A stretch of 64,000 bases of DNA from Pseudogymnoascus verrucosus (lineage: Eukaryota): assembly GCA_001662655.1 (NCBI GenBank), contig KV460283.1, one strand, 5' to 3'. The notes under the pieces were generated by a model. It was not told the DNA's origin. It saw only the letters and a list, made by a program, of their open reading frames with translations, and searched no databases. Each line of letters begins with the position of its first letter. The first letter of the stretch is position 1. Shown here piece after piece: positions 5,871-42,094 of this stretch. The translations under genes and the position numbers were made by a program.

Positions 5871-7037
5871 ATGGGTTCTTTTATACCAGGTAGTATGAGG
5901 GCAGTGGTCTTCAAAGGCCCCTTTGAAGTCGAAGTTGTGACCAGAGCAACTCCTCATATTCGCGAGCCCACCGACGCGATTCTCAGGGTCTCCTCCACGG
6001 CTTTGTGCGGCAGCGACTTGGTACGTGATTCTAAAGTGACTCTTACACTGTAGAGACTGGCTTTACTGCCCTCCAAACTTCTCGGCATCTCACTTACTCG
6101 TGCGTAGCACTACTACCGAGGCCATCAGAAGTCAACGCCAGGGTTTGTCTGCGGGCATGAGACCGTCGGATACGTAGTGGCACTAGGCGATTCAGTTCGG
6201 AATTTTCAGATCGGTGACCATGTCGTCGTTCCATTCTCTACTGCCTGCGGCGACTGCTTTTATTGCAAGCAAGGCGAATCTAGTCGATGCTCAAAGGGCG
6301 TACTCTTCGGTTGCATCACACCCGCATTCACCGTCGATGGAGGACAAGCGGAATACGTCCGCGTGCCGCATGCCGCATCGTCGTTGGTAAAAGCCCCGCC
6401 CGGGATTCCAGAAGACATGCTCGTCCTGATGGCAGATGTCTTCCCGACAGGCTATTTCGCTGCTAGTCGCTTCCTCAAAGACCTACCTAAGACACAACAA
6501 GAAGATACTATAGCCGTAGTACTCGGCTGTGGGCCTGTAGGTATCTGCGCCATCGCATCAGCTATCTATCTCACAGGCGGCCAAGCCAAGGTCTTTGCTG
6601 TTGACTCTATCCCAGAACGGCTGGAGGCGGCTAAGAAACTAGGTGCAATCCCCGTCAACCTCTCCGACAATCCAGTCGAGAAGATCAAGGAAGCCTCGTC
6701 CGGTCGCGGTGCAGACGTCGTGATGGAAATTGTTGGCCATGCTGATGCCCTCGAACTCGCCTTTGATCTGGTCCGTCCTTTTGGCAAAATTTCGAGTGTG
6801 GGAGTGCACAATGAACAGATCAGTTTCCCGGGGTTTGCTTTATACTCGAGAAATGTAACGATGGTCTTCGGGCGGTGTCCTGTACGGAGTATATTTGACG
6901 AGACTGCTGCTGTGCTAGAGAAGTTGAAGGTCAAGCTTGGTTTTTTGTGCCAGAAGAAAATGTCTCTTGAAGAGGCGCCGGAGGCTTTCAAGTTGTTCGA
7001 GAAGCAGAAAGTACATAAGATTTTATTTAGCATATAG
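5871..7037 (+). CDS. Zn-dependent alcohol dehydrogenase (MDR, formaldehyde-dehydrogenase-like subgroup); exons 5871-6020, 6108-7037; 359 aa
   Basis: A GTACGT...TAG intron joins ALCGSDL to HYYRGH...GHE. Structural Zn motif CGDCFYC...C and Rossmann motif GCGPVG are present. Confidence 0.93.
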
Positions 7038-7338
7038 GGAATGCAGGCTCTTGGTTCAGAAATAGAAATCATGTAGTTAAGATCCATTACCTATGGCAGT
7101 TCTATGATAAGTTCATATGATGAGGGTCGACGATCAAGGAATAATTAAGCACCGTGCTTTCAGTCGAAGCAGTTGAGATTCAAGGCTAAGGATTGATCGA
7201 TAGTGTAATAGGTGGTTATCACTGTAAAGTTTGTCGGACTTGGTTCTACGACACATGATTAAACAGAAAAGAATAGGATTCTTTGTATTTACTTTCAGCA
7301 GTGCCATTCTAAACGCAATTAAGCGGGATACAGAACAA

Positions 7339-8367
7339 TTAAGAAGCAACTGCTGCTCCGTAGCCTTTGAAATCGCCCTTTTCAGCTAGTATAATGGGTA
7401 ACTCTTCCGATAACAAAGATTCGAAAGTCGACTTCTCTTGGGGCTTCCACCCAAGAGCGCGCAATCTGTTGGCGCGATTCCTTGCATTTTGCCCAATGAC
7501 TGCAACGGACCACTCTTGAAAAAGATCACTATAGAGATCACTTGAAATCTCCCTCGGTGTTGGATCTTGGATTTTGCCTCCCTGCTGAAGCGCCTTCCCA
7601 ATCTCCTCGGCACATCTCTTCCATGAATATTCATCTCCGTTCTCGATGAAGAAATATGGGTTCTCGAGGACCTTCTCCCCAGACGTGGATTCCATATAAT
7701 GCAGGATGGTCATGTAACCCCTTGCCAGATCAGAGACGTGAATTTGACCCCAGACTGATTTGCCTTTTCCAGCAAAACCGGCGTAGCCGTGCTTGAGCGC
7801 GAATCGAACCATTGTTGGGATCTGGATCGATAGGCGGTGTTCCTTACCAACCCCATAGATTACGGGCGGAAGCACAATCGAGATCTTAGCTTTGGCTCCA
7901 AGGGCGTCGCGACGCTTGAGGATGGCTAGGTCAATGGACCGATGTGGTGCGTCGTCAGCTACGCTATCAACCGTTTCTGGCTTGTCGTCCTCATATATCT
8001 TCTCACTGACATATTCACCGTTGGAATCGTCAGTGATGAGACTACAGCCGCTAGTATGGATGTAGATAGAGCTTTTTCCAGTCTTGGCACGCGCTCCGAT
8101 ACCGTCGAGGATAGAAACAGCTGATGGTTTATGGTCAGCTGTTGCAGTGTGTATAACGATATCGGCAGCGGCAGCTGCTTCGCGGATAGTGTCGCCATCG
8201 TCTAGCGATCCAAGTATAGTTTTGGATCCGAGCTTTTCAAGATCTGCCCTTGCTTCCTCTCTTCGAACCAGTATTGTTACCTGGTACCCTTCACGAAGGA
8301 GCTCTCCTAGGATTTCGAGCCCAATGAAACCTGGGCCAAGGAGGAAAACGGAGCCCTTGTCCGCCAT
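7339..8367 (-). CDS. NAD(P)-binding epimerase/dehydratase-family (atypical SDR) oxidoreductase, 342 aa
   Basis: Uninterrupted ORF with N-terminal LLGPGFIG and IHTSG / PPVIYG / IHVSDLARGY segments typical of the fungal extended-SDR family. Confidence 0.88.
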   Translation of the reverse strand: MADKGSVFLLGPGFIGLEILGELLREGYQVTILVRREEARADLEKLGSKTILGSLDDGDTIREAAAAADIVIHTATADHKPSAVSILDGIGARAKTGKSSIYIHTSGCSLITDDSNGEYVSEKIYEDDKPETVDSVADDAPHRSIDLAILKRRDALGAKAKISIVLPPVIYGVGKEHRLSIQIPTMVRFALKHGYAGFAGKGKSVWGQIHVSDLARGYMTILHYMESTSGEKVLENPYFFIENGDEYSWKRCAEEIGKALQQGGKIQDPTPREISSDLYSDLFQEWSVAVIGQNARNRANRLRALGWKPQEKSTFESLLSEELPIILAEKGDFKGYGAAVAS

Positions 8368-9028: not shown

Positions 9029-9497
9029 ATGGGAGGAATTATTCATGTCGTCCAGCTTCAGTTCAAATCAGATGTTGGCAGTGAGAAAATTGATGATGTG
9101 CGTCCTTCTTTCCTCGTCGTGATGATACACGTATACGATCACTAAATCCCAATAGGTACTTGCGCAGCTAATAGCGCTGAAGGACAAGTGTGTTCTCCTA
9201 GACACCCAAAAGCCATACATCAAGTCAATCAGGGCCGGACCGGACAACTCAATTGAAGGAATGCAGGTATGTAGCCCGATAGCACAGCCTACCTTCAATT
9301 CTCGAGACCATTGGTTGGCGTTCGGTGAGCTGACTATGAAATCTTAAAAGAACGACTACACTCATATGATCATCACCGAATTCGAAAGTGTTGCGCACCG
9401 AGATTATTATGCGAAGAAAGACCCTGCCCATATGCTTTTGGCTACATCCCTGCCTCCATTCGTGAAGGGGTTGCAGGTACTCGACATCGCTGCATGA
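9029..9497 (+). CDS. Stress-responsive A/B barrel (Dabb) domain protein; exons 9029-9097, 9156-9266, 9351-9497; 108 aa
   Basis: Manual splice gives MGGIIHVVQLQFKSDVGSEKIDD|VLAQLIALKDKCVLLDTQKPYIKSIRAGPDNSIEGMQ|NDYTHMIITEFESVAHRDYYAKKDPAHMLLATSLPPFVKGLQVLDIAA*. Both introns are phase-0 GT-AG. The IxHxV..F and THxxxxEFES..RDYY..DPAH pattern is Dabb-like. Confidence 0.88.
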
Positions 9498-10045: not shown

Positions 10046-11841
10046 TCAAAACCGCTTGAAGCCCTTCATGTCATCCTCTAGAATCTTCTGCACTGTCTTT
10101 CTGTACGGACCCAACCCACCAAACCAAAACATAGAAGTAGTCTTCTTACCCTGAATGTTGGCGCCAAATATCCAGGAATCGACTCTGCGGAACAGACTCT
10201 TCGAGCTCATCTCGTCACATAACTCTGTCCACTGCTTTTCTGCGTGAGGTTCGGCCTCTATAATGCCATTCTCGCAGGTGATACTGTTTGTGAGTCCGTT
10301 CGCGTGTCTGTTAACACCATTGAAGCTATTGTTGCCATCAGTGACTTTAGTATCATTTACTCCGTTGGCAACATTAGGAGCCCTGATCAGGGTTGAGGAA
10401 CTCTTCTCTGCAGTGGCAATCAGGTCGGAGATGATCTCGACGTGACATTCGATCGCAGGAGGAAGGTTTGAGAATGGTCCATTTGGGCCGGTGATCATGA
10501 AGAGGTTGGGAAACTGGGGTACAGAGATTCCCAGATATGATGTCGGTCCGGTTTGAGCCCAATGGTCTTTCAAAGTGTGGCCGTTTCGCCCCTGAATCGC
10601 GATACGTGTGTAGTTACCATCAACGGCATCGAAGCCCGTTGCACAGATGATGACATCAAGTTCGTAAAGCGTGCCGTCCGCGGTCTTGATACCGGTTGGT
10701 GTTAGCTCGGTGATTGGGTTCGTCTTGATATCGACGACGTCAACATTATCACGGTTAAACTGCTCGTAATAACCAGTGTCACATAGAGGTCTCCTGGCAT
10801 ACCAGTCCGTGGGACAAAGCTTCCGAGCCTTCTCTGGATCCTTGACCGTCTGGCGAATCTTGTTCCTAATAAACTCACAGGCCACCTTGTTCGCTTCCTC
10901 ATTTACAGTGATATCGCTGAAAGTCCAGAACATAAAGCGGAAACCATTCCCTTTCTGCCAAGCATCTTCGAAGATTTGCTCGCGCTCTTCGGGAGTGACG
11001 CTAAAGGTCGGGCGTTTGGTCTCCTCGAAACCATACGCAAACAAGCTGTTCTTAGCTTGGTCCCAAATTTCCCTATATGTCTTGTTGACGTGATTGCGGT
11101 GCTCGGCGGAGACTGGTCCATTTCCAGCGGGGACGCTGTATTGGGGGTTGCGTTGGAAGGAAATCAGTTGCTTGACCTCCTCAGCTTTTCCAAGTGCGGT
11201 TATGACCTGGATACCCGTGGAGCCGTTGCCAATGATTCCTACACGCTTCCCTTTGAGGTTCGCGTTCTCGGGCCATCTAGCTGTGTGGTAGAGTTCTCCT
11301 TCATATTTGTCGAGGTTGTGGATGTTTGGGAAATTGGTTTTTGATAGGAGGCCGAGCCCTGTCACAAGGTATTTGACTTTGAGGACTTCGTTCGTTGACA
11401 GCGTAACGAACCATTTGCGCTCCTCATCGCTCCATTGTGCAGCTAGTAACTCTGTTTTGAGTTGAAAGTGCTTCCGCAGGTTGTATTTCTTAACAACGTG
11501 CTTGAGATATCCTAAGATCTCATCGGCTTGGAGATAGTGGCTATCCCACGGGTACGTCTCAAGATCTTCCTCGTCCCAGGAATATCTGTAGAGGAATGAT
11601 TGGGTACTACTTATATTAGCTGAATACTTTGTCGTGGAGACAGCAGCACAATGCAGTGCCCCTAGAAGTGCGCTTACTCGGACATGGCTCCTGGATATCG
11701 GTTCCAGTACCAAGTGCCTCCGACATCATCTGCTATATCAATAGCCCTAACATTTAAACCCTGATCAAGAAGTTTTTTAAGTTGGTAGATGCCGCCAAAG
11801 CCGGCACCAACAACTAAAGCATCAAGATACTGTGGCTCCAT
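10046..11841 (-). CDS. Type I Baeyer-Villiger monooxygenase, cyclohexanone-monooxygenase-like; exons 11841-11678, 11606-10046; 574 aa
   Basis: GAGFGG FAD motif, GGTWYWNRYPGA, BVMO fingerprint YEGELYHTARWP, NADPH motif GNGSTG, RPLCD, ATGFDAVDGNY, GPNGPFSNLPP and SWIFGANI. The 71-nt intron has a GCTAAT branch site. Confidence 0.95.
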
Positions 11842-12545
11842 TGTGATCGCTGTCTCAATGGTCGATTAATGAATTTGACTATTAAATGACGAGAGAGTGT
11901 GAGAGGAGATGGAGAAAGGAAGACGAGAGAAACGGGATGGACCACCGTGCGAGTCATACCATAATATATCCTAATACATAAAGTGATATCGCCCTACACT
12001 CGGGGCCGCGCGCGGGGAAGTCCCTGTTTGATGGGGTAGATATCTGCTAATCGCTTTTTGTCCGTCTGTCTCGAGCATGGGAAACTAAATGCAACCCCCG
12101 CTTTCGAGAACGCTGGTGCGGCGTTCTCCAAAGCGGGGGTTCTCCAAGGCTGGGGTAACGCTTAAGCAATAGTGCCAGCGCACGCGGGACAGCCAAGATT
12201 CTACTTCCGACTCCACTTAACCCGAACTGCTTCGGCTGTGTCATTTAGCCGACGCTTAACTGTTTGCTGAGAGCATATAGCCGTTGCTTCATTCTTCACC
12301 CGTGACGCTGCGAAGGCCGCGACGGTGACAGTTGCATGCGTGAGAATCCGGCGCTAGGGTACGACAAAGTTGCGAATAAAGAGGTTACGTCGTTGTTAGC
12401 GCATTATCAGAATGGTAGAAGGTATCTAAGACTCCACGTTGGCCTGTGCAGATTATATATGAGTACACCATTCGACACGAAGCTAGCCATAGAATAATGT
12501 CAGTGCCATCGTTGCCCTTTCACGCCGGAGAACGGCCGGCTTAAG

Positions 12546-13460
12546 ATGCCATATCCAGATATGTTGCAAGTGCCTCAGCCTTGCTGGACATGCACATCCT
12601 GCCGGGCGCCACGACGGACCAATAGAAACCAGAGCCTCACTAGCTTCACGGCCATCTTTACTGATGACTGGAACCGATCCTTTAACTCTAAGAATCATCG
12701 GCCGCGGCGGCGGAGATTTGCCAGAAGCGGGGAAACGATCTCATGTTTCGCTCCCGTCTTCTGTGAAGACTGGAAAGATGACGAGGATGAAGTTGAAGCA
12801 GCTGCACCTGCTTATGAATATGTCCCTCCTCAGAAATGCCGCCCTTTCATAAGGGACATCGGCTGTAAAAGAAAAAGCGGTGCCGACGACTTCGCGGGTT
12901 CCCTGACCTCAATATGGCGTCCTGATAAAGGACAGTATGAAGAACACTATAACTCGTGGACGGCCACATCTCCCACGCCCCAACAAAACCAATTCGAAGA
13001 GTCCGCGCCGTCATCACGAGCGACTCCGGGATGTCTCACCCCACCATTCATAATACCCGTCAGCGATGAAGAAACTTTCGTGGAAGGACGCGCAAGACCA
13101 GAACATCCATCGCAAAGCCTGCCAAGCTTAGTGCACCCCGGGTTTATCGACATCGCAACTGAAATGGAGAGATGTCCGTATCCGACGTCAGTAGCAGATG
13201 AATCAGGAGACCCTTTTCCTGCGCTCACGGACCCGTTCATCAAGGGCGAAGACATTGTGGTACCCCTAAGAGATGATATACCTGACCAACACTGGTTCCT
13301 GGGGGATGACAGTGGGGCTGGAGACGGGGGGTTCGACCATTGGGACCGATTTATAGAATGGAGTATTAGGGCTCGTGGCCGCCGTGAACGTGAGGACTTT
13401 CAGGATTTGAGTACTTCGCGGGAGATGAGCGTCGAGCATGATTTTGAGGAGTTTATTTAG
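12546..13460 (+). CDS. Hypothetical protein, 304 aa, Pro/acidic-rich with no recognised domain
   Basis: Long ORF with normal (non-RIP) composition, divergent from the BVMO gene. No motif recognised. Confidence 0.45.
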   Translation: MPYPDMLQVPQPCWTCTSCRAPRRTNRNQSLTSFTAIFTDDWNRSFNSKNHRPRRRRFARSGETISCFAPVFCEDWKDDEDEVEAAAPAYEYVPPQKCRPFIRDIGCKRKSGADDFAGSLTSIWRPDKGQYEEHYNSWTATSPTPQQNQFEESAPSSRATPGCLTPPFIIPVSDEETFVEGRARPEHPSQSLPSLVHPGFIDIATEMERCPYPTSVADESGDPFPALTDPFIKGEDIVVPLRDDIPDQHWFLGDDSGAGDGGFDHWDRFIEWSIRARGRREREDFQDLSTSREMSVEHDFEEFI

Positions 13461-13634: not shown

Positions 13635-15458
13635 ACGTAATTCACAAGCGAACGGATCACTAAAACACCAAAATTGACTATTACTGCCTACTACTACACT
13701 ACCACCCTACATAATAACCCTTATTTGATCGCAATTGATTCCTAGCGCCTCTCGCACGTACGAGCATTATGCCCCATATTACCACATGTGCCACATCGTC
13801 GCTGTCGGCCTATAGAACCCCCCTGCCGAGTAGTCTTACTTGCCACCTCCGTACGGACTTAAGCATTAACCTTAGCACTCTAAAGTATATCCTCTCCCTC
13901 TTATATAGAGAGGCTTCCCCCTTACATTATACACCTCTTACGCTTCCTTTACCTCCTCTTTTTCTGTTCATTTGCTGCCTATAGAGCCTTAACTTCTACC
14001 TTAAGTAGAATAGTAGAATGCATTATCATTTCCGCCCCTTTAACAAGGTAGCTAACAGCATTATTAATTAAGGTAGGAGAGCTGTTCTAATGTTGTATAA
14101 TGTAGTTCTTAATGTGCTCTATTTGAAAGTTAAGCTCCTATATAGTTTAAAGAGTCTTTAAAGTCTAATTGCTACTCTTAACTATAGAAGGAGTTAGAGT
14201 CCTTAAGCGTAGATTTAAGTAAGAGAGGACATTCTAGAGCTTGTATAGAACTAGTCCTATAGCTTAGAATCTGCTCTTAATGTTCTGCTCTATAAATGTA
14301 GCTTTAAATGCTTCTTTAAATGTAGAGAGGAACTTAAGCTTTATAATGTAGTTTAGCTAGTTCTATATAAAGGTTTTAATCTACTTTCTATATAAAAGCT
14401 TTAGTAGCGTAAAGCAGCTTACATTAAGAGGCTAAAGAATGTGTAATGAGTATAGTAGTATATAAAGGGTAATTATCTTCTACTTTATATAGTAGTGTTA
14501 AAATTAAGTAGAGAGGTAGCTCTTATGTCTGTTAAGAATAAGAAGGTAATAGGTTCTAATTATACAAGCATTTATATGCTAATTAAAGTGTTAAATCTAC
14601 TTATACCTAATTAAATTTAACGTCTACCTATTCTTACTTAGTGTAATTACCTAATCGTCTAGCAATCCTATGTCCTTATACTATGTAGAGAGGTAATTCT
14701 ATGCTTTAAAAATAATAAATAGTAGGAGTGCCCATCTATACAAATTAACACCTTAGATAATTAACACCTACTCTCTATTCCCTAGCTATATAGTCTTTAG
14801 ACAGCTCTTTGCTTCTAAGCTTATAACTACCTTTATAGTAGCAATAACTCCTATTGCAAAACCTACTTCATTAAAGTTGTAGATATCCTACTCTAAGATT
14901 CTATATTTTACAACTATGTTTTGTACGAGGGAGAACTACCCTTTAATTATCTTAGGATCTTCGCATTTTACTCGTTTATAATCGTACTTCTAACTGAACT
15001 TTACTTTGATTTCTATACGACGCTTAATGAAGTTAGTAGTCTAGTTTATCCTAATAGGGCTCTTGCCTCGTTTAGAGAGCAGAAGGTCTGCCATTTCTTG
15101 TACACCTTACAGCTAGGGCGGAAATCCACGTAAATCTAGGTTGAGGATATACTAAACGAGAGCTGACTCTTCGTATAGAGTTAATTTTCGAGAGTTAGGA
15201 GTAGAATCGCGTCGGGAAGCTACTCTATTCAACCGTCTATAGAGAGTTGTATATAGGACATCGTACGACATTGCGCTTGCTCGAATACTTTGAATATGTC
15301 CTTCTTTAATTGATTGAATAGCTAGAAGTATTCTCCCCTCTTGATTAGAGGTTTTAGCTTGAGTTGGTGTTGCTATAAGTTGAATTCTGTTAAGTTGACG
15401 CGTTTTGGTGTTTTGGTGATCCGTTCGCTTGTGTGATCCGTTCGCTTGTGAATTACGT
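13635..15458 (-). mobile_element. Full-length Fot1/pogo-like DNA transposon inserted inside the gene island, RIP-inactivated
   Basis: TIRs ACGTAATTCACAAGCGAACGGATCAC, TA on both sides, 1824 bp. The transposase remnant ends in a CCHC knuckle (RRCGTCGNMGHNARTC). Confidence 0.93.
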
Positions 15459-15682
15459 TATAGTCTCGTTCGAGGCACGTTCTTTTTTGTGATTTTGGCT
15501 GGCCATATACTGCGCTACATGTTATGAGCGCTTTAACAGTCTCCTACGTTAGCTATAAAAAATGGTAACTAGTTAAGTACGTGATTTATATTGCTACAAG
15601 TCTATGAACAAGCACCGAAAACCTCCCCAGTGACTATCGACACTATGATGTCTTAACAACATCGGCCTACTGATTTGCACGT

Positions 15683-17464: not shown

Positions 17465-17702
17465 TGCAGCTTCAATGCAGAGTGTTTGTGTGATCTGGGG
17501 TTTCAATGGGTACAGAACTGTTATGTGTTGAAGGTGACAAAGAGTAAAAGAGATGTACGTGAAATCGATCGAATGTTATATTCTAGAGAAAATGCCCCGT
17601 CAAGAAGTAAATAAGTCTTCCAAATATTAAATCCACACGGTTCTTCATGGCTAGTTTGGGACACATTAACCATGCAGCTTACAGTCGGCTATATGGTGGA
17701 TT

Positions 17703-32168: not shown

Positions 32169-33360
32169 CTAGACTTGATGCGCAGACTTTGAGGGCTGGA
32201 TGAGAATCTTCACATGCTCCGCCCTGTTGTGGATGAGCTCTAAGAAGCCACCTTGAATAGCCTTCTCAAGTGGTACAATCGATGTTATCATGTCCTCAGC
32301 GGCCATCTTTCCGCTCGCAAGGTCTTCGAGAACGTCCTCAAAGTCTTCATTCGTGTAGCAAATACCGCCCATAAGCTTGACCTCTTTAAATGAGAAACTG
32401 TTGGGGTTGATGAGCAGCGGTTTTTCGTGGATTGCTACGTTGAACACAATACCGCCAGGTTTAACCACGGCCATTGCAGTGTCCATAGTTGATTGAATGC
32501 CTGTAGCATCGAAGACAATGTCTGCTCCATCCACTATAATGCCGTGCATAGCGTCTAGAACTGGGTTCCATGTATCGAAATTGTCTCCATCCGGTGATTT
32601 TGCGAGCGGATTAACTACCAGGTCGGCTCCAAATTTCTCCGCTTGACGCGATCTTAATTCGGTCACTTCGCTGATAATCACTTTCCTCGCGCCCCGAGAC
32701 TTCAACAGGAGAAGTAGAGAGAGTCCGATTGGGCCTGCGCCTAGTATTACTGCGTCTTGGCCTTTCTTGAATCCGGAAATTCGAATCATGTGGGAGGCGA
32801 CAGCCAAAGGCTCCGCTAATGCCCCAACCTTGAGCGATACGCCCTTTGGGAGCGGGATGCAACTGACCGCCCTCACCACGATCTCATCAGCAAATCCTCC
32901 TCCATGAGCGCTTAGCCCGTAACATGCCCAATTTTTGCAGATGTTTGGCCGCCCTGACTCGCACGTCACACAACGTTCCTTGCCATGGTGTCTGTCATCC
33001 ATAGATGGATTTATGGCCACATTCTGGCCGACCTTAACTTGGCTGATATTAGAACCAACCTCGACGATGGTGCCGGACATTTCGTGGCCCATGACCACAG
33101 GCAGTTCGGCACCAGTGTGAGGGTTGCTTTGGCCTGGCTGAGGCGGAAAGATTGGTCCCCCAAGATACTCGTGGACATCTGTGCCACAAATGCCACAGTA
33201 TGCAATTTTGACTCGTACATCATCGTTACCACACGCCCTTCTCCACGGTCAGTTACAACTGTGTAGATACTACTAAGCAGGGCTGCACGTACTGTATCGT
33301 TACATCCTCGACCCTAACATCATTCTTAGCATGAAAACGGAGTGCTCTGATGTTTGCCAT
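32169..33360 (-). CDS. Zn-dependent (2R,3R)-2,3-butanediol-dehydrogenase-like MDR; exons 33360-33293, 33237-32169; 378 aa
   Basis: Spliced N-terminus MANIRALRFHAKNDVRVEDV...AYCGICGTDVHEYLGGP...GHE, plus GALAEPLAVASH and LGAGPIG: the BDH/sorbitol-DH-type pattern. Confidence 0.9.
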
Positions 33361-34130
33361 TGTAATCCGTACGTTCTGTAAGTGAATTCGCTGTCTGACG
33401 GAGCTGTCACCATGAAGGAGACTTAAGGTGGGAATGCATCACAATCCCTCGTTTCATTAGCTCCACAGGAGCGGCATTGTGGCGGTTAGAAGCTAGATCG
33501 AGCGAGCCGGGGTTGTTCATTCTCGGAAAAGGTGCATTAGAAGAGCACGTCTGTGCATAGGAGCCGAGGAGGCGCGGATGTAGAGAATGAAAGTATGGAG
33601 AGAGGGTGAGAGAGGGGATCAGTTGCCCACCCATCGGGATGTGGAGTTACGAAACTGGCTATCTTGGCTTTATCTGGACTAGCATGTCCATTCTCTCAGT
33701 GCTCTGTTTCGGGAAATGATTCCCCGCACCGGTTCCCCACATCAGATCAACACAGCTACGCCATAGCATATACCCGAGCCGTTGATGAGGTGTGTGGTTG
33801 CCTCAACATCATAGCAAGGCCAAATGATCCTCCCCCTGAGTAAAACTGCTTATAGACTCCTACAAATATTCATTCGCTATTTCCCCGCACCCGGCCGCGC
33901 GACCGGGTATATACTAGATCCCACGACGCGTGATCCTTAAACTTGGAGCAGCATTTTTCTACTGAAACAAGTTCAGATCCTAGTTTGCTTGCTCTAAATA
34001 TCTAGCCACTTATCAATCCATCTATCCGCCGTGTAAACTATGTAGTGAAAGTCAAACGACACTCACTCCTACCTTCTAGACTCTACTATAGTCTCGAAGT
34101 GTTGATACTCTTTCTGATCTCTACGTCACC
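33361..34130. promoter_or_regulatory. Bidirectional promoter between the BDH-like and acetoin-reductase-like genes
   Basis: Head-to-head genes. TCCCCGCA at 33721 and 33882, CCCCAC at 33735, CCGAGG at 33564. Confidence 0.55.
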
Positions 34131-35142
34131 ATGGAGTTCCACTATAGTCGCATGCGTCTGCCCCTTTCCATGCTTGCTCGGCGCTGGGCACAACCTGTGG
34201 TGCAACCTATGGTACAACCTATGGCTCGCCGCTGTATCGGAATTGAAACGGCGAAAAGGAACTCGCGCCAAAAAAGAACAGCCATTGTGACCGGCTCAAG
34301 TCGTGGAATGTATTTACGCCTCTATCCCAAATCCCAGACACAAGTGCTTGTGCTAACTTGAATTCAACATTCTCAGTGGTGAAGCCATTGCTCGTAGACT
34401 AGCAGCAGAAGGCTATGCCGTCACCATCAACGACATCGCAGCCAACAAGGCTGGCGCGGTCAGATTGGCCGCCGAACTGAACGAGACCTATGGGGACGGC
34501 ACCTCCACGGGAATTATCGCCGACGTGACCTCAGCATTGGAGGTGAAGTCCATGATTGAAGAATCGGTTAAGCAGCTCGGCCCCCTGACGGCTATGGTCG
34601 CAAATGCAGGCATTGCCAGCGTCGGCGCTGCGCTCGACTTGTCAGACGAAGACGTGGCGCAGACAATGAACGTCAACTTCACTGGCGTCTGGAACTGCTA
34701 TACTCATGCCGCCCGGCAGATGATCACACAAGGCCCCGTTTCCGAAGGCAGCACCGGGTACAAGATCCTAGGCGCGTCGTCAATCGCGGCGTACAAGCCT
34801 TTCCCTCTTCTGGCACACTACTGCGCCTCGAAGGGGGCCGTGAGGAGCCTGACGCAGGTTTTCGCAATCGAGATGGCCCAGCACAAGATCAACGTTAACT
34901 GCTACGCACCCGGTATCGTGGGAACGTCAATGTGGGACCGCATTGATGAGACGCTAGGCAAGATGCAGGGCCGCCAAAAGGGTGAGACGGTTCAGAAATT
35001 CGTCACGGAACTAACGGCTATGGGTAGAGTCAGCGTGCCAGAGGACGTCGCCAAGGTCGTTGGAGGCTTCCTCTGCGGGCCTGACTCGGAGTTCGTGACA
35101 GGGCAGAATATCGTCGTCGATGGTGGAATCGTCTTCTCGTGA
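34131..35142 (+). CDS. SDR, acetoin(diacetyl) reductase / meso-2,3-butanediol-dehydrogenase-like; exons 34131-34309, 34377-35142; up to 314 aa (start codon uncertain)
   Basis: TAIVTGSSRGI|GEAIA across the intron, ANAGI, ASSIA, YCASK, NCYAPGIVGTSMW and TGQNIVVDGG. Confidence 0.9.
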
Positions 35143-36864: not shown

Positions 36865-38655
36865 ATGTCGGCTTCACTGCTGTCGCAAGCTGGGGTCAGA
36901 GGCGACAACGACGGTGTGAGTGTCCGAATCAGTGAAAAGGCCGAGTTCGAAGGCTTTATTTCCGCTCTAGGGGTGGCCCATTTTCTCGGCGTCCAGTTCG
37001 CGCGTATCCCTGCTCGTTTCCGTCAGGCTCAACTCCTTCCCCCCGAAAGTCATTGTGCCACAGTGGATGCCACAGAATATGGGCCAATCTGCCCTCAGGC
37101 TCCTGACAATCTTCGCAGCATTCGGCAGCACCTCTTTGCTGGTGCGCCTGCCGCGAACTTGGCACAATCCGAGTATGATTGCCTCCGGTTGAATATATAC
37201 GCGCCTAAATCGGTCATTTCGTCCGGGAACAAGGTGCCTGTTCTTGTGTGGATTCATGGAGGTGGGTGGTCAATTGAAAACGGGAACGCTGACTTCTGTA
37301 AGCAAGCAAATCCTTCTATCAAAGACACATCCCCCCCCATTCTCTCTCTCTCTCTGCACCTGGTGGTCTACTGATGAGGTCACTAGCTGGCGACTTTCTA
37401 GTACACCACTCGATTGAGACAGGTAAGCCGATAGTGTTTGTATCCATAAACTATCGGATGGGGTCCTTCGGGTTCTTGTCTTCATCAGAACTCGCAGCAG
37501 AGGCAGTCAGTCATGGAGAAGCAGGATGGGCAAACCAGGGTCTCAACGACCAACGTATTGGGCTTCAATGGGTTCGTCAATTGTCTTCTACCCGATATAC
37601 TCCTCGTCGCTCACCACTTACAGGTCAAAGACTACATTCACATGTTCGGAGGTGACGGCTCTAACGTAACGATTGCCGGAGAGTCCGCCGGAGCCTGGTC
37701 TGTCCTAGCTCATCTGCGATCAAACCAGGCCCTTTGTCAGCGCGGGATCATGCAATCAGCTCCATCTTGGTCCATGCTCCGACCAGAAGAGGCACAGGGG
37801 AAATTCGACCGACTAGTGCAGCGTGCCGGGATCCCTCTCACTGCCACGGCTTCGCAGAGGATTGCTGCATTACGGACAGCCTCCACGGAGGACTTGATTG
37901 CATGGAACGGGCCGCTGACATCTCCGATTTGGGATCCAAAATGGTTTGTCGGCCATGCCTTGCCAGAGGCTCCCCTCGACTGTGTGGAGCCATTTCCCAA
38001 CTGGGTTCAGGCAATCGTAACAGGTACAATGCGAGACGAAATGTCGGTATTTGGGTTTGAAAAGTTTTGGCAAACCAAGGTATCCGTGATCTCCAGCCTA
38101 CGTAATGTCCTGTCTCTACCAAGCGACCTTTCCTTCGGTTCCGAGATACTGGAAGAATATGGCGTCCTGGAAGCCAGGTCAGACACAGCGGCAGTGCAAG
38201 CACTTACTAGTCTCCTTGGCGATGCTTGCTTCTCGCGTCTGCCGTTCAACGTTGCCAGCGCTTGTAGTAACCCCAACTCACCATCACTGTATATTTACCG
38301 ATTTGATCAGTCCGATGAGGAGGAGGGTAGTCTGCTCAACGGAGCTGCCTTCCATACGCTGGATAACACTTACTTGTGCCGTTACCCCGCGGTCGCTGGC
38401 TCTGCAGCCCCACGCTCCTGTCAAATTACAGCGGATATGTTCTCGCAGATGGTTCTCCGCCACACATACGGCGAGCCTCCCTGGCAGGCGTACGGCATTT
38501 CGCATGCACAAAATGTCTTTGATGGAGCATACACTCGACTTGAGACCGTCAGTCATGATTGCCAGCGCTGGAGGAAGCTGTTGACCAGTCAAGACCGAAC
38601 GAACAGATTTGCGAGATTGTTTTTTGATTTTATCACTCAAGGACCGGGGCGGTGA
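36865..38655 (+). CDS. Type B carboxylesterase/lipase (alpha/beta hydrolase), no signal peptide evident; exons 36865-37297, 37387-37571, 37624-38655; 549 aa
   Basis: YGPICPQ, SEYDCLRLNIY, oxyanion VWIHGGGW, INYRMGSFGF, NQGLNDQ and nucleophile elbow GESAG. Confidence 0.92.
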
Positions 38656-39883
38656 GGTATTCATAAGCCGAGTATGGGCCATGACCTTCGAAACGTTTGC
38701 GAGAAGCTTTTTCTCGATCTCGGGGATGATGACAAGAAGCCATTTGTGGCATTGTCTAGGGCGCAAAGAAGAGTTACAGAAGGAGCAAGGGAAGAGTCAA
38801 ACATGTCCCTTCCCCCACAATTGCCCAGTTCTTAATATTATAAAATAATGTCTTGTTTCTGGATAGGAAATTTGATCAGGATTGGCACTTGCGGGTTGTG
38901 TTTCTCAAAACTGTTTGCTCCTTCCTATGATCTGTTTCAGTGGAAGAGGAGGGAGACTCTGTGGAGTACGTGACGGATCGTAGTGTGGAGGAAGCCATTT
39001 TTGTCCCCGCATTTTTCTCAGCGGGGGTACGACTACGCTCTTCAGTAGTAAATTGAAGCCGACGTTACCCTGTGACCAGGATATATAGCCGTTGGGAATT
39101 GGCGCCATAATATCATATCTCCGCATTTGATCACATCCTTCTACAATCAGTCCAGGAAACTGCGAGTGGGCTATCGGTCAAAACAACCTAAGTCTTCCAA
39201 GATTCAAGTCTGTTCGCTTACCTAATCTTGTAGTGCCAGACAACCGCTTTTGGCAGTTCTGGGGCTTTGACATAGCAAACGAAAGCACACTAAAAACCAT
39301 GTTAACTGGCAGTGTGCAGACGAAATATGCACAGAGTGCTCTATGAATTATATGTTCGTGCCACAAACCGGAGTGGATAGCAACTGTTGTTATAGAAGTG
39401 TCACACTATCTGCTTGACTGTTTATCCTGGGCTTGCATTTGGGCAAAATGTGCCATCACATGTAATGGTTGGTTGTTCAGGGCCCTTGCGGAAAATGCCC
39501 ATATATATACTTCGAAGTCGCGAGGTGCTTGCAGGGAACCTAAACCAACCGCCGTTTGGAACTTCCGAAGGCCCTAAACCTCAATAACCAATGATAGCGC
39601 GGTAACCCTGTTAGTCATCTCAGGCTTCCACCGAATAACTAACCGACCAACCAGAGCCTTAGAAGCCTTAGCCTTAGAAGCCTTGGCCTTTCTATTTTCA
39701 GTTCCCAGTTCCACTCATTTTCGTTCCTAGTCCAAACCCAAATGCGGGGAACAGAGGACGACACCGAAGCAGATGGCACACCTAGGGCACCCCTAGGGCA
39801 CCGTGAACTATTATCCTTGGCCAGAGTTTCTTCAAAGCACCACATTCGATCGCGGACGAAACACCTCTCTCCCACGGACCAGC

Positions 39884-42094
39884 ATGGTCTCTCCAGCCGG
39901 CGGGAAGCAGCGGCTGCGAGCCTTCAAGGCTTGCCAGAGATGCAGCGCGCGCAAGGTTAAATGTGATGCCGCCGAGCTTGGCTGTCCTTGTAGCCGATGC
40001 TGCTTGGACAATGTCGCCGAGTGTACACTGGTTACCTCCCGCCGAGGCACTTATGATCGAAGAACTTTCCGACGGCAGGTGGCGAAGCCTGGTGCATCTT
40101 TACGATCATCGCCACCACCATCAGCGTTACAGCCCTTATCTCATAGTCCGTCAACTGCTCAGGTTAGCCCCCAGTCGCGTTTAGATGCATCCAGCGGCCG
40201 CGGTAGAGTTGAGGCTGCTACCTTACCCCAGTTCGTCGCAAGGGAGACAACGACGATCTCCACTCCTACGAGATATCCACAGGAAATAGTTTCGAATTTA
40301 GATCAACCAGCCAGTGACCCTCATGCCGTGGATCTAAATCGCTCACCTTACAGTTTACCCTCTACCTCCTTGGCTGATTCCTTAGGCAACCAGTCACTGG
40401 CGACCATGTTCGAAGATTTCCTCGACCAGGCGGGCCACGAAAACTTGTGCAAGGCGAAGCTAGTTCTGTTCGGGGAGCCTTCGCCCTTGACTTTTGCCCT
40501 ACAGCTACGGAGGGACATGAACTCGGGCCTCCACGATGCCAACCAACGTCACTTGACTAGTGATTCGCTGGCCGTCGTTGAAGAAGATGTCCATCCGAAG
40601 CACCTACGCCCGCATGACATTGAGTGTCTGAAGGCGAAGGGGGCGTTCGTTTACCCAGAAACGGAATCTTTGGAGGAGATAATTAACGTCTTCTTGGATC
40701 GATTCTATCCCCTATACTCCGTCGTGAATCCGACGGAGTTACGCAAGGCGCAGCAGGATAAAAGGCTACCATGGATCTTGCTCCATTCCATTTGTTTTAT
40801 TGCGATGACTTTCTGCGAGTCTGCCACAATCTACAAGGCTGGGTTTAATTCTCGCGCACAAGCACGTCAGCTCTACTATGATCGAGCCAAGGCTCTTTTT
40901 GATTTTAATTACGAGAATAGTAAAATAATCCTAGTCAAGGTGGCAATCCTGCTCAGTTTTAAGGGCCCGCAGATGGATTTGTACTGGAACCCATGCTCGT
41001 GGATCGAGATTGGGGTGACGATGGCCGTGGCCCTTGGAATGCACCGCAAATCTGTTGCAGTTGATGGGGAATCAAATGATCGGGGCCTGCTCAGGCGGTT
41101 ATGGTGGACGTTAGCCGTCCGCGATGCCCACTGTTCCGCGCTGTTGGGACGACCATTCCGTATCAATATGGCCCAGTGCGACGTTGAAGCGTTAACGGAG
41201 GCTGACTTCCCCGACGAGCACGCGTGTCAATCCGCGACGGTACCCTTAAGCTGCAGCTGCCGCGAGTCGTTCGAGTACCAGATTCAGGCTACGAAGTTAT
41301 CACTTATCCTCCGAAATATCATGTACTTCCGGTTTGGGCCGACCAGTGTAAGTTCTACAACTGATCTAATCCACGAGCAACTCGCCGCCTGGAAAGCAAA
41401 GCTCCCAGCCGCTATGCAATACCTGCCAGGCAAATCCTCTGTGTCGACATTGGCCGTGCAACTCGATGTCCTGCTCAATTATCACATTATGCTCCTCCAT
41501 ATGGACCAACCCCGACAATCGAGACCTAATCCGTCGTCGCTCTCGACCTCGCTGCCCGGAGGCTACGATTGCACTGCCATTACAGAGTCATCGGCCCTAG
41601 CGGTCTCTTCTAGCGCATTCAAACTCACGACGCGGACTTCTATCTGCAACATCCCCCACGAAGTGTTCCCTGGGTTTTTCATGGCAGGAATCATTCTCTA
41701 CCAAAAGGCACAACAGGCGCAGAACAGTCATCTAGCGAAAATGATCCAAGCCAGCTTCGACAACTGCCAAATGCTATTGATTCAAGCGCAGAATACCTGG
41801 GACCCGGGGGTCTGGGCAATGAAGGCTTTTGAATTTATTCTGTTTCCTACAGACGCATCTGATGCTGCAGAAGCTCAGGTGCCGTCAGGGAGCAGTCATC
41901 GCTACCGAATGAGTACGCCGTCCTTGGGCGTTAATAACGCTTCCTCGACCCAACCCCAGGCTTCAGGATATTCAAATATCGAAAATTACGCTTGGTCGGA
42001 GACTGACGCCATGGGTTTTGATGGGAACGTGCCGGTGGACTTGGCAGACTATATGCTTCTGCCCAATTTTTTCGGCCCACCATTCGACACCTAG
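39884..42094 (+). CDS. Zn(II)2Cys6 transcription factor, paralogue of 18576-20789 (CTF1-beta/FarB-like), 736 aa
   Basis: ACQRCSARKVKCDAAELGCPCSRCCLDNVAEC cluster. Shares SPLTFAL, HPxHLxPxDI, GPQMxxYWNPCSWI, VRDAxCxALLGRP and PHExFxGFF with the first TF. Confidence 0.92.
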   Translation: MVSPAGGKQRLRAFKACQRCSARKVKCDAAELGCPCSRCCLDNVAECTLVTSRRGTYDRRTFRRQVAKPGASLRSSPPPSALQPLSHSPSTAQVSPQSRLDASSGRGRVEAATLPQFVARETTTISTPTRYPQEIVSNLDQPASDPHAVDLNRSPYSLPSTSLADSLGNQSLATMFEDFLDQAGHENLCKAKLVLFGEPSPLTFALQLRRDMNSGLHDANQRHLTSDSLAVVEEDVHPKHLRPHDIECLKAKGAFVYPETESLEEIINVFLDRFYPLYSVVNPTELRKAQQDKRLPWILLHSICFIAMTFCESATIYKAGFNSRAQARQLYYDRAKALFDFNYENSKIILVKVAILLSFKGPQMDLYWNPCSWIEIGVTMAVALGMHRKSVAVDGESNDRGLLRRLWWTLAVRDAHCSALLGRPFRINMAQCDVEALTEADFPDEHACQSATVPLSCSCRESFEYQIQATKLSLILRNIMYFRFGPTSVSSTTDLIHEQLAAWKAKLPAAMQYLPGKSSVSTLAVQLDVLLNYHIMLLHMDQPRQSRPNPSSLSTSLPGGYDCTAITESSALAVSSSAFKLTTRTSICNIPHEVFPGFFMAGIILYQKAQQAQNSHLAKMIQASFDNCQMLLIQAQNTWDPGVWAMKAFEFILFPTDASDAAEAQVPSGSSHRYRMSTPSLGVNNASSTQPQASGYSNIENYAWSETDAMGFDGNVPVDLADYMLLPNFFGPPFDT

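Follow-up and report, generated by a model that had tools for sequence, protein, structure and literature searches.

The ~36-kb island described here, which lies in a 64,000-nucleotide stretch of DNA from the soil fungus Pseudogymnoascus verrucosus (contig KV460283.1; the window), appears to be a co-regulated catabolic cluster built around a cyclohexanone/cycloalkanone-type BVMO, a reading to which we assign a probability of roughly 0.6. The gene grouping exceeds chance, because a promoter 9-mer is enriched within it and part of the gene set is linked in other fungi. The evidence supports the island as a coherent unit around a CHMO-type BVMO, without a secondary-metabolite core enzyme.

The island sits between RIP-like AT-rich blocks on both sides. 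A Pfam scan of 19 ORF pieces assigned a family to 16 of them (none to pieces 12498-13460, 21758-22426 and 24103-24732). Contigs of run X1 (one sample), which we read as transcripts of six genes, carry correct-strand GT..AG joints in MDR1, Dabb, BVMO and MFS, and also span the NmrA-like and cupin genes. Along the window, the features are as follows.

1..5300: left AT-rich block, RIP-like (GC 0.35, TpA/ApT 1.76, (CpA+TpG)/(ApC+GpT) 0.57)
5871..7037, plus strand: MDR1, Zn-dependent medium-chain dehydrogenase, 359 aa, exons 5871..6019 and 6107..7037 (GT..AG joint 6019>6107 present in X1 contigs); Pfam ADH_N and ADH_zinc_N on ORF piece 6108-7037
7339..8367, minus strand: NAD(P)-binding epimerase/NmrA-like protein, atypical SDR, 342 aa, one exon; Pfam Epimerase and NAD_binding_10 (ORF piece 7339-8418)
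9029..9497, plus strand: Dabb (stress-responsive alpha/beta-barrel), 108 aa, three exons (GT..AG joints 9097>9156 and 9264>9349 found in X1 contigs); Pfam Dabb on exon 3, E 8.4e-7
10046..11841, minus strand: BVMO, CHMO/CAMO-type, ~574 aa, intron 11607..11677 (joint in X1); Pfam FMO-like (ORF piece 10046-11725)
12546..13460, plus strand: orphan ORF, 304 aa, divergently oriented from the BVMO; no family
13900..15650: RIP-like transposon relic within the cluster (GC 0.35, TpA/ApT 1.65)
15683..17464, minus strand: acyl-CoA ligase, 572 aa, C-terminus ARL (PTS1-like), one heuristic intron 17302..17364; Pfam AMP-binding, E 7e-76 (ORF piece 15683-17317)
18576..20777, minus strand: TF1, Zn2Cys6 transcription factor; Pfam Zn_clus and Fungal_trans (ORF piece 18576-20921)
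21758..22411, minus strand: cupin, 217 aa, with an invariant HxH...E...H metal-site pattern in homologue alignment A1; family without a Pfam model
23176..24732, plus strand: MFS_1 transporter, introns 23656..23711 and 24099..24150 (joints in X1); Pfam MFS_1 (ORF piece 23164-24140)
25604..26670, plus strand: SDR1, classical short-chain dehydrogenase, heuristic introns; Pfam adh_short on both ORF pieces (25424-26492)
27599..29092, plus strand: ALDH, succinate/glutarate-semialdehyde-dehydrogenase type, 497 aa, one exon; Pfam Aldedh, E 1e-163 (ORF piece 27467-29092)
29950..31479, minus strand: sugar-porter-family MFS transporter, 3' exons uncertain; Pfam Sugar_tr, E 7e-72 (ORF piece 30298-31500)
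32169..33360, minus strand: MDR2, butanediol/polyol-dehydrogenase-like Zn-ADH, 379 aa, heuristic intron 33241..33292; Pfam MDR Zn-ADH (ORF piece 32169-33248)
34200..35142, plus strand: SDR2, acetoin-reductase-like SDR, start uncertain; Pfam adh_short_C2 (ORF piece 34357-35142)
36865..38655, plus strand: type-B carboxylesterase, 549 aa, exons 36865..37297, 37387..37571 and 37624..38655 (splice sites from DNA); Pfam COesterase (ORF piece 36805-38655)
39884..42094, plus strand: TF2, Zn2Cys6 factor; Pfam Zn_clus and Fungal_trans (ORF piece 39797-42094)
42200..57300: right AT-rich block, RIP-like (GC 0.33, TpA/ApT 1.94), in which ORFs of at least 70 aa are almost absent

All gene classes listed in the original prediction are present and intact by Pfam, motifs and gene models, and its MDR1 start at 5871 agrees with the spliced model. 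Its list lacked the NmrA/epimerase-like gene, the spliced Dabb gene (overlooked by the ORF scan as well), the cupin and the orphan ORF. Also absent from it was the transposon relic, which has a weak HTH_psq match at 15152-15457 and whose orthologous spacer in the metagenomic fungal locus L001 is only ~650 bp.

In a PDB search the BVMO matches solved cyclohexanone monooxygenases (E 2e-165); it contains the motif YEGELYHTARWP and is 94% identical to a P. australis protein. In a comparison with the SSADH subfamily TIGR01780 the ALDH reaches 645.4 bits, just under the cut-off of 646.35, in keeping with the semialdehyde-dehydrogenase type originally proposed. A second SSADH-family protein of P. verrucosus, VE01_01388, is just 60% identical to it and is taken to be the housekeeping enzyme; by sequence, the two are separate paralogues. 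The top PDB match of MDR2 is the (R,R)-butanediol dehydrogenase 6ie0 (E 1.4e-50), and SDR2 reaches 207.6 bits against TIGR02415, under the cut-off of 304; none of the island's enzymes attained an NCBIfam equivalog cut-off. TF2 is a paralogue of TF1 (37% identity over 683 columns, E 3e-159). The family of the cupin is rare (86 representatives at E<=1e-3 among 1.84 billion proteins), and the AF2 model of the island's cupin (pLDDT 94.3) matches only the generic cupin fold. For the orphan ORF, Pfam and NCBIfam gave no match and all Atlas leads were below 0.9, and a 50% homologue occupies the equivalent place in L001.

Fungal biosynthetic clusters typically use Dabb, cupin, NmrA-like, SDR, BVMO, MFS and Zn2Cys6 proteins for tailoring and regulation. 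The island has all of these and is an accessory-type region between RIP-like repeats, so it could be a biosynthetic cluster without a canonical core enzyme, in which the ligase, BVMO, SDRs, cupin, Dabb and esterase produce or modify a small lactone or ester that an MFS exports. We regard this as improbable: the scanned ORFs gave no domain of a PKS, NRPS, terpene synthase or prenyltransferase, in line with the missing backbone noted originally, the BVMO most resembles catabolic cyclohexanone monooxygenases, GCGGGG-type sites occur, and the conserved partners (semialdehyde-type ALDH, importer-type sugar porter and PTS1 ligase) suit degradation.

The promoters are one line of evidence for the co-regulated catabolic cluster. 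In the window the 9-mer ATATAGCCG (motif A) has 8 copies where 0.63 are expected, a count reached in 0 of 100 shuffles, and all 8 fall within the island. Seven of them lie in intergenic DNA, which makes up 37.5% of the island; in the 13.8 kb of island intergenic DNA, motif A ranks first among 9-mers by unbiased count, and none of 500 order-2 Markov simulations matched the intergenic count of 7 (maximum 6, once). When one mismatch is allowed there is no overall enrichment (24 copies against 18.45 expected). The exact copies, followed by those of a second motif, TGCGGGGA (motif B), are:

5570..5578, plus strand: motif A, 301 nt upstream of MDR1
12275..12283, plus strand: motif A, divergent BVMO/orphan-ORF promoter, 434 nt from the BVMO ATG
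17686..17694, minus strand: motif A, ~220-260 nt upstream of the acyl-CoA ligase; site kept in L001
22824..22832, minus strand: motif A, divergent cupin/MFS promoter
27383-27391 on the minus and 27405-27413 on the plus strand: motif A inverted pair, ~200 nt upstream of the ALDH
30381..30389, plus strand: motif A within the sugar-porter coding region, the sole non-promoter copy
39083..39091, plus strand: motif A, ~800 nt upstream of TF2
33721..33889, minus strand: motif B, two copies in the divergent MDR2/SDR2 promoter
Starts 17740, 25475, 39004 and 39743: motif B, the remaining four copies

One promoter element is therefore common to BVMO, SSADH-type ALDH, PTS1 ligase, MDR1, anion-type MFS and one regulator. 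Exact copies are missing from the promoters of the esterase, SDR1, SDR2/MDR2, the sugar porter and NmrA. Motif B, with all 6 window copies in island intergenic DNA, marks SDR1, MDR2/SDR2 and TF2. Exact motif A also stands upstream of BVMO homologues in the metagenomic fungal loci L001, L006 and L009, and of the ligase in L001; one-mismatch copies occur in the TF-BVMO spacer of L004 and, in L006, in the promoters of MDR2 and the sugar porter.

Linkage was compared between 19 window pieces and 32 loci. L001 (BVMO 85%) keeps the order TF1-ligase-orphan ORF-BVMO, with homologues of TF1 at 74% and of the ligase at 86%. L006, a marine fungal contig (BVMO 57%), has homologues of NmrA-like (54%), MDR2 (61%), sugar porter, TF1 (47%) and BVMO in that order inside 10.3 kb, followed by housekeeping genes, and in L004 (BVMO 53%) a TF 41% identical to TF1 adjoins the BVMO. 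BVMO neighbours in L010 are only weakly ALDH-like and sugar-porter-like. In four genomes, orthologues of ALDH and BVMO lie on one contig, 5-7 accession numbers apart: Hypoxylon crocopeplum (ALDH 89%), Halenospora varia (83%), Hyaloscypha finlandica (79%) and Hyaloscypha sp. PMI_1271. For Hypoxylon the distance is 7, as many as there are genes between BVMO and ALDH in the window, accession order being a proxy for gene order (the P. verrucosus BVMO-esterase gap is 7 by accession and 12 by locus tag). In Penicillium angulare, 11 locus tags separate a cupin homologue from a BVMO homologue (54%), and in Neonectria ditissima a cupin homologue is joined to a Fungal_trans factor in the gene model.

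That unrelated accessory oxidoreductase and transporter genes came together by chance is very improbable, given that promoters have a 9-mer in common and that the linkage recurs in distant fungi. The families are all large and common in ascomycete genomes, and BVMO homologues do occur without partners: no window homologue stands beside the BVMO of L003 (56%) in either 10-kb flank, and in Phialocephala subalpina the homologues of BVMO, ALDH and cupin are spread over three separate contigs.

Co-occurrence across fungi, the check originally proposed, holds for the BVMO with a Zn2Cys6 factor, sugar porter, MDR2-like enzyme, ALDH and ligase, but not for the esterase. The latter has a GESAG motif and an N-terminus without a hydrophobic stretch, with no signal peptide, as had been described. 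Among 4005 candidates it has 26 matches at E<=1e-20, ordered from Pseudogymnoascus through Aspergillus (62-73%) to 35-41%, with one partial Aspergillus match at 49%; in this set, close relatives outside Pseudogymnoascus occur in Aspergillus only, and none in any genus with a 72-76% BVMO orthologue. Its promoter has one-mismatch copies of motif A only. Because this phyletic pattern differs from that of the BVMO, the 'full functional equivalent of chnABCDE' is genus-specific, seen within Pseudogymnoascus only, the esterase being the proposed ChnC. The conserved core may do without it.

These data bear on a composite origin, in which the BVMO, TF1, ALDH, ligase, cupin, sugar-porter, MDR2 and NmrA-like genes form an ancestral BVMO regulon and lie next to later additions for other small-molecule redox tasks (esterase with TF2, SDR2, and perhaps SDR1, MDR1 and Dabb), the match of one enzyme per chn step being partly coincidence. 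The esterase's distribution, its adjacency to the TF1 paralogue TF2, the promoters lacking exact motif A, the placement of motif B on SDR1, MDR2/SDR2 and TF2, and the RIP-degraded transposon inside the island with RIP-like blocks at its flanks are all consistent with such an origin. Yet TF2 too has an exact motif A copy, and at least three Pseudogymnoascus species preserve the whole BVMO-to-esterase span. For MDR2 and the sugar porter the sites are motif B or only variant motif A, yet their L006 homologues adjoin the BVMO, and therefore the motif groups do not split cleanly into two modules. Overall, we consider a composite island unlikely, though it is the most credible of the alternatives.

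Returning to a co-regulated catabolic cluster, we infer the enzymatic assignments, step order, substrate, element-binding factor and catabolic rather than biosynthetic direction as follows. A neutral cyclic (or secondary) alcohol, diol or ketone would enter through the sugar-porter-family transporter, and an acidic relative possibly through the MFS_1 transporter, which by its motif we take to be of the anion:cation-symporter type. A dehydrogenase would convert the alcohol to a ketone or alpha-hydroxyketone, the conserved candidate being the butanediol-DH-like MDR2; SDR1, SDR2, MDR1 and the NmrA-like protein could also act here, and no finding assigns SDR1, SDR2 or MDR1 to the ChnA or ChnD steps. 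Oxygen insertion by the BVMO would yield a lactone or ester, opened by the carboxylesterase in Pseudogymnoascus or spontaneously with a 2-hydroxyketone substrate. The semialdehyde-type ALDH would then oxidise the omega-oxo acid to a dicarboxylate, which the PTS1 acyl-CoA ligase may activate for peroxisomal beta-oxidation. One or both paralogous Zn2Cys6 factors would induce the genes through (C)ATATAGCCG, with CATATAGCCG as a candidate binding element for their DNA-binding domains. Motif B can be read as CreA-like (SYGGRG), and the GCGGGG-type sites suggest glucose repression of the cluster.

To our knowledge, pathway genes for the breakdown of cyclic alcohols and ketones are known so far only in bacteria. 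The original prediction, too, knew of no described clustered fungal version; a literature search found no fungal cluster of this composition. A physiological precedent for the proposed pathway is provided by Fusarium oxysporum, which degrades cyclohexanone via caprolactone and 6-hydroxyhexanoate to adipate, no gene being named in the passage that describes this conversion (PMC11204954). Since its genes have a promoter motif in common and recur together in distant fungi, the P. verrucosus island probably encodes a genuine route for degrading cyclic alcohols or ketones.

The 36-kb stretch of the window at 5.9-42.1 kb (the island) is best read, with a probability of roughly 60%, as a co-regulated catabolic gene cluster with a cycloalkanone-type BVMO at its centre; that it encodes specifically a complete cyclohexanol pathway is held with less confidence. 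The island is of normal composition (GC ~0.49) and is flanked and interrupted by AT-rich blocks, which in an ORF scan are nearly devoid of ORFs of at least 70 aa and which show a RIP-like dinucleotide bias, with TpA/ApT ratios of 1.65-1.94 as against 0.72-0.75 in the gene regions. The blocks, delimited by composition, and the features past the right one are as follows.

1-5300: AT-rich block flanking the island on the left
13900-15650: AT-rich block of 1.75 kb interrupting the island
42200-57300: AT-rich block flanking the island on the right
57394-58443: DDE_1 transposase relic or fragment with a long low-complexity tail, past the right AT-rich block (Pfam)
58893-63962, minus strand: PDR-type ABC transporter adjoining the transposase relic, its domains scattered across nine or more ORFs that differ in frame

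The scattering of the transporter domains points either to many introns or to a decayed gene. The internal AT-rich block contains a weak HTH_psq (pogo-like) relic and is without counterpart in the orthologous spacer of a metagenome locus (L001); its edges are the break points of contigs from two related sequencing runs, X2 and X3.

Pfam, applied to 19 ORF pieces and a further 12 ORF pieces of the window, recovered every gene class named in the original prediction, with the enzymes intact at motif level. As that prediction had also stated for PKS, NRPS and terpene synthase backbones, no core synthase domain (PKS, NRPS, terpene synthase or prenyltransferase) is present in these 19 + 12 pieces. 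Both SDRs carry TGxxxGxG and YxxxK, both MDRs carry zinc ligands, the esterase has GESAG plus Glu and His candidates, and the catalytic Cys/Glu context of the ALDH is intact. The ligase contains SSGTTGKPKG and ends in ARL, which fits the PTS1 consensus, a C-terminal (S/A/C)(K/R/H)(L/M); it is the sole cluster protein with such a tripeptide. Four further genes extend the predicted set.

7339-8367: NmrA/epimerase-like protein
9029-9497: Dabb protein of 108 aa in three exons, detected solely via spliced contigs
12546-13460: orphan ORF
21758-22411: cupin of 217 aa, with no Pfam family

Candidates for the cycloalkanol and omega-hydroxy-acid dehydrogenases are the two MDRs, the two SDRs and the NmrA-like protein, none of them at an equivalog cut-off. 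The closest solved relative of MDR2 is (R,R)-butanediol dehydrogenase, and the top NCBIfam model for SDR2 is acetoin reductase, with a score under the cut-off. In the NCBIfam search no cluster enzyme reached an equivalog cut-off, and the esterase, cupin and orphan ORF had zero matches; the gene models of SDR1, SDR2, the sugar porter, MDR2 and the ligase derive from an intron heuristic. The ALDH scored 645.4 bits against TIGR01780 (cut-off 646.35) with a query ORF that included 44 untranslated N-terminal residues. It is 60% identical to VE01_01388, a second SSADH-family protein of P. verrucosus and presumably the housekeeping enzyme, from which the cluster ALDH is distinct as a paralogue. The identity of the cluster ALDH to a protein of Hypoxylon crocopeplum, a fungus of another class, is 89%, as against 60% to the same-genus VE01_01388.

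The alignment of the BVMO to solved cyclohexanone monooxygenases spans both domains (6er9, E 2.2e-165, 554.6 bits; 3gwd and 5m0z score similarly) and is broken by one insertion of ~44 residues. This insertion, rich in Asn, Gly and Thr, lies at 10264-10396 between two aligned stretches, and since a contiguous contig of a sequencing run labelled "RNA?" (X1) keeps it, it is not an unrecognised intron. BVMOs have the fingerprint consensus FxGxxxHxxxW[P/D] and two dinucleotide-binding GxGxxG motifs. Exon 2 encodes the fingerprint YEGELYHTARWP, in which Y replaces F, together with GNGSTG, and the N-terminal GAGFGG was read in a 94% homologue whose alignment to exon 1 is 92%. The protein has the full-length similarity, the fingerprint and the GxGxxG motifs of a CHMO-type type I BVMO, and its predicted activity is the NADPH/FAD-dependent lactonisation of cycloalkanones. 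Its top match is a Pseudogymnoascus australis protein (94% identity), whose 90%-identity cluster includes nine named Pseudogymnoascus isolates among the 15 members listed of 23; this places the source organism in Pseudogymnoascus or close to it. Elsewhere, 90%-identity BVMO clusters unite proteins of Helotiales with those of two rock fungi, Elasticomyces and Cryomyces. Inheritance in patches, transfer or contamination of assemblies could each be the cause.

Part of the cluster appears in spliced form in X1, the contigs of which were compared with positions 5500-25400 of the window and were at least 99% identical to it in 19 of 20 pieces. Six GT..AG joints, each on the gene's own strand, fall in MDR1, Dabb (two), the BVMO and the MFS transporter (two); they fix these introns and indicate that spliced transcripts of the joint-bearing genes existed in one sample. 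The contigs also span the NmrA-like and cupin genes, but not TF1 or the greater part of the ligase and the orphan ORF.

Co-regulation is suggested by a 9-mer, ATATAGCCG (motif A), which was found by comparing the BVMO upstream regions of the window and three related loci. It occurs eight times in the 64-kb window against 0.63 expected, a count matched in 0 of 100 shuffles, and all eight copies are held by the island. One lies within the sugar-porter coding region and the other seven are in promoters, at the following sites.

MDR1: 301 nt upstream
BVMO and orphan ORF: the spacer between these divergent genes
Ligase: ~220-260 nt upstream
Cupin and MFS: the spacer between these divergent genes
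ALDH: an inverted pair ~200 nt upstream
TF2: ~800 nt upstream

When the 9-mers in the island's 13.8 kb of intergenic DNA were counted without bias, motif A ranked first with seven copies, and none of 500 order-2 Markov simulations gave any 9-mer with that number. The sequences that flank its copies are unrelated, which shows that the motif is not a dispersed repeat. With one mismatch it is not enriched overall (24 copies against 18.45 expected); the island has 13 such copies, of which 10 fall between genes, and the promoters concerned are those of NmrA, BVMO/orphan ORF, cupin, SDR1, sugar porter, MDR2/SDR2 and esterase. A second recurrent word, TGCGGGGA (motif B), has six copies, all in island promoters (ligase, SDR1, MDR2/SDR2 twice and TF2 twice), and it contains GCGGGG, which we take to be the CreA/Mig1-type catabolite-repressor consensus. 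The two Zn2Cys6 factors, TF1 and TF2, are paralogous over their full length (37% identity, E 3e-159), their zinc-cluster spacing is almost the same, and motif A could be read by one or the other.

Several smaller features of these promoters were also recorded. One copy of motif A precedes the orphan ORF, at 223 nt from its open frame and 271 nt from its ATG. In the ligase promoter, CCCCAAT forms a tandem run of three to four units (17705-17727) directly beside the motif A copy, and the ggggaatcca neighbourhood of that copy is also kept in L001. The sequence GCGATTAGCA, present as a single copy in the window, is common to the BVMO upstream regions of the window and of two metagenome loci (L001 and L004), while CCAATCCCC and ACCTTCAA were rejected as shared motifs, being local tandem and partly coding.

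The original prediction had proposed co-clustering in other genomes as a check, and the BVMO is indeed linked to cluster partners in the metagenome loci L001, L004 and L006 and, through the ALDH, in four named genomes. In named genomes, linkage was judged by shared contig, locus tags and accession order, the last being imperfect (the BVMO-esterase gap of P. verrucosus is 7 by accession and 12 by locus tag). Orthologues of the ALDH and the BVMO lie on the same contig, 5-7 accession numbers apart, in Hypoxylon crocopeplum (ALDH 89%; proteins KAI1371671-KAI1371678), Halenospora varia (83%; KAH6683412-KAH6683417), Hyaloscypha finlandica (79%; KAH8790652-KAH8790657) and Hyaloscypha sp. PMI_1271 (KAH8780503-KAH8780508). 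The Hypoxylon gap of 7 equals the gene count from BVMO to ALDH in the window, where the promoters of both genes have motif A. The omega-oxo-acid-type ALDH and the BVMO appear from these linkages to have been kept together in evolution. In Penicillium angulare (N7478_001345-001356) a cupin homologue and a 54% BVMO homologue are 11 locus tags apart, and a gene model of Neonectria ditissima (AK830_g136) has a cupin homologue fused to a Fungal_trans regulator. The BVMO, ALDH and cupin homologues of Phialocephala subalpina are on three separate contigs, and Fusarium lateritium, F. solani and F. vanettenii have 72%-class BVMO orthologues. A search of the main texts of articles gave no occurrence of the locus tags NECHADRAFT_48101 (F. 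vanettenii), VE01_10318, VE01_10330 or AFUA_1G03300 (Aspergillus fumigatus).

A metagenome search with the BVMO gave 32 loci, with all of which the 19 window ORF pieces were compared. L001 (BVMO 85%) carries TF1 (74%), ligase (86%), orphan ORF (50%) and BVMO in the window's order, and no window homologue is found in the 6 kb past the BVMO; the orphan ORF keeps its position there at an identity of 50% as against 74-86% for its neighbours. On the marine scaffold L006 (BVMO 57%), a span of 10.3 kb takes in homologues of the NmrA-like gene (54%), of MDR2 (61%) and of the sugar porter (41-64%) as well as a TF (47%) and the BVMO, with housekeeping genes coming after the cluster genes; window genes up to 20 kb apart are direct neighbours in this locus. 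In L004 (BVMO 53%) a TF adjoins the BVMO. Exact copies of motif A stand upstream of the BVMO in L001, L006 and a further locus (L009) and upstream of the ligase in L001, and one-mismatch copies occur in the TF-BVMO spacer of L004 and in the MDR2 and sugar-porter promoters of L006. Both 10-kb flanks of another locus, L003 (BVMO 56%), are without window homologue, and L010 has weak ALDH-like and porter-like neighbours alone.

On its fold and His/Glu metal ligands, the 217-aa protein is predicted to be a metal-binding member of the cupin superfamily. Its predicted model has a pLDDT of 94.3, and in fold it comes closest to cupins, namely WbcA (Z 9.7) and FdtD (Foldseek E 3.8e-4). In an alignment of 25 sequences H73, H75 and H124 are invariant and E90 nearly so, and the family pattern PRHxH...PHxW is invariant with a nearly invariant Glu between. 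The family is rare, with 86 representatives in 1.84 billion proteins, and as to specific subfamily or function Foldseek, VIA-align and Atlas gave generic cupin matches only. The orphan ORF may be a fast-evolving cluster-specific protein; in an Atlas search with it every lead was below 0.9.

A full equivalent of chnABCDE, as originally predicted, stands only in part: the linkage of BVMO and ALDH in four genomes and the presence of motif A in both promoters bear it out, but the esterase has close relatives only in Pseudogymnoascus and Aspergillus. Among 4005 candidates in a search with the esterase, 26 proteins passed E<=1e-20, with identities of 79-94% in Pseudogymnoascus, 62-73% in Aspergillus species and then 35-41%, plus one partial Aspergillus match at 49%; none of the 26 matches is from Hypoxylon, Halenospora, Hyaloscypha, Ilyonectria, Fusarium or Phialocephala. 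Upstream of the esterase there are variant motif A copies only. The conserved core is, as judged from these sequences, without the esterase. In Pseudogymnoascus, BVMO and esterase are on one contig in three species (11-12 locus tags apart in two and 11 accession numbers in the third), and the added esterase and further dehydrogenases could widen the range to plain cycloalkanols and lactones. Aspergillus, the sole source of close esterase relatives (62-73%) outside Pseudogymnoascus, includes AFUA_1G03300 among them. In Pseudogymnoascus sp. WSF 3629 the BVMO (366 aa) and the esterase (204 aa) are both truncated and bear the consecutive tags VE00_09556 and VE00_09557. This suggests an internal cluster deletion of ~25 kb, which would make the strain a natural knockout.

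Bacterial chnABCDE with ChnR, and cpnABCDE, are cyclohexanol and cyclopentanol clusters with known gene roles. Like the island, they have a central CHMO-type BVMO with dehydrogenases, an ester or lactone hydrolase candidate and an omega-oxo-acid-type ALDH nearby, and the end product is in both cases probably a dicarboxylate destined for beta-oxidation. The island, however, consists of separate intron-bearing eukaryotic genes with Zn2Cys6 factors and a common promoter motif, whereas chn/cpn form an operon with an AraC/NtrC-type regulator. It also goes beyond them in its transporters, PTS1 ligase, cupin, Dabb and NmrA-like protein, and its hydrolase candidate, a type-B carboxylesterase, is not conserved with the BVMO. 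The bacterial relatives obtained from a contig search with the BVMO were 23-39% identical, characterised chn/cpn loci not being among them. We examined the neighbours of prokaryote-type BVMOs in 15 bacterial loci and in 23 metagenome loci taken as prokaryotic (G+C 0.57-0.73, BVMO identity at most 43%). Window-like neighbours, found in 7 of the 23 metagenome and 7 of the 15 bacterial loci, belonged to the SDR, MDR or ligase families only, at 27-34% identity (SDR2-like in 11 loci, MDR-like in 1, ligase-like in 2), and no ALDH, esterase, porter or TF homologue lay beside the BVMO in any of these 23 + 15 loci. Neighbours of so few families and such low identity argue that the cluster is not a transferred bacterial operon. 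Since the proposed working resembles chn/cpn but genes and regulators are fungal and the conserved core is unlike chnABCDE, the island is a variant of the chn/cpn theme.

Among fungi, a point of comparison is CAMO of Cylindrocarpon radicicola; Ilyonectria robusta, of a genus of the former Cylindrocarpon, holds a 74% homologue of the window BVMO. CAMO, from strain ATCC 11011, is a characterised CHMO-type fungal enzyme (PMC5225235, PMC4498894, both in excerpt), grouping with CHMO-type BVMOs and acting on cyclic and linear ketones (PMC5225235). In the excerpted text of PMC5225235 it is studied as a single enzyme without genomic context or regulon, whereas the island BVMO lies within a gene cluster. 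Fusarium oxysporum degrades cyclohexanone and cyclohexane, with cyclohexanol, caprolactone, 6-hydroxyhexanoate and adipate found and the genes unnamed in the consulted sections (PMC11204954); these metabolites are the ones expected from the proposed island pathway, the work being, in those sections, physiological. In Aspergillus terreus, the carbon-source-induced genes ATEG_10004 and _10005 together with ATEG_10008 encode a BVMO, an aryl-CoA ligase and an SDR, and they neighbour a 3-hydroxyanthranilate cluster (PMC7842363, in part). By gene family they resemble the island, in that the setting is catabolic and a fungal BVMO stands by an SDR and an AMP-forming CoA ligase, but they serve aromatic (salicylate) catabolism, and the ALDH, sugar porter, cupin and motif of the island do not figure in the portion of that article used. 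The original prediction knew of no clustered fungal version, and our literature search, which covered articles outside supplements and subscription journals, likewise found no fungal cluster of the island's composition.

In the pathway that we propose, where every enzymatic assignment derives from family membership, uptake would be followed by oxidation of an alcohol or diol to the ketone, the BVMO would insert oxygen, the ring would open, the semialdehyde-type ALDH would oxidise the omega-oxo acid, and the PTS1 ligase would provide CoA activation for peroxisomal beta-oxidation. In a variant, a vicinal diol or 2-hydroxyketone would be the starting substrate, and the BVMO product of a 2-hydroxycycloalkanone is a hemiacetal lactone that opens by itself to the omega-oxo acid. 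Davey and Trudgill reportedly described such a hemiacetal-lactone route in 1977 for trans-cyclohexane-1,2-diol in an Acinetobacter. The self-opening route would need exactly the conserved set, namely diol dehydrogenase, BVMO and ALDH. According to the part of PMC13042536 consulted, cyclic diols and hydroxyketones are substrates for butanediol dehydrogenases.

Taken jointly, these observations could define, for the first time in genetic terms, a catabolic Baeyer-Villiger regulon in a fungus, a reading that we offer tentatively and at clearly less than even odds. A Zn2Cys6 factor would act via CATATAGCCG on a core of sugar-porter importer, vicinal-diol/butanediol-type dehydrogenase, CHMO-type BVMO, semialdehyde-type ALDH, PTS1 CoA ligase and new metal cupin. 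By ring opening, and without a dedicated lactonase, this core would turn alicyclic 1,2-diols or 2-hydroxyketones (alternatively cyclic ketones of plant or fungal origin, e.g. terpenoid or cyclopentanone compounds) into dicarboxylates. Its distribution would be patchy, perhaps through transfer, across ascomycetes of soil, roots, wood and the sea.

Fungi are able to break down cyclohexanone and its alicyclic relatives, and BVMOs of fungal origin serve as biocatalysts; the genes, regulation and transport of fungal alicyclic degradation are undescribed in the literature searched. The locus supplies a concrete gene set, a candidate activator with a predicted binding element, and a conserved core that can be traced, and it gives a rare cupin family its first functional context. 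If the reading is true, the cluster would help to explain the use of cyclic ketones, alcohols or lactones, whether natural or pollutant, by fungi of soil and by those associated with plants, and would provide a natural enzyme set (BVMO, dehydrogenases and ALDH) for the conversion of cyclic feedstocks to dicarboxylic acids.
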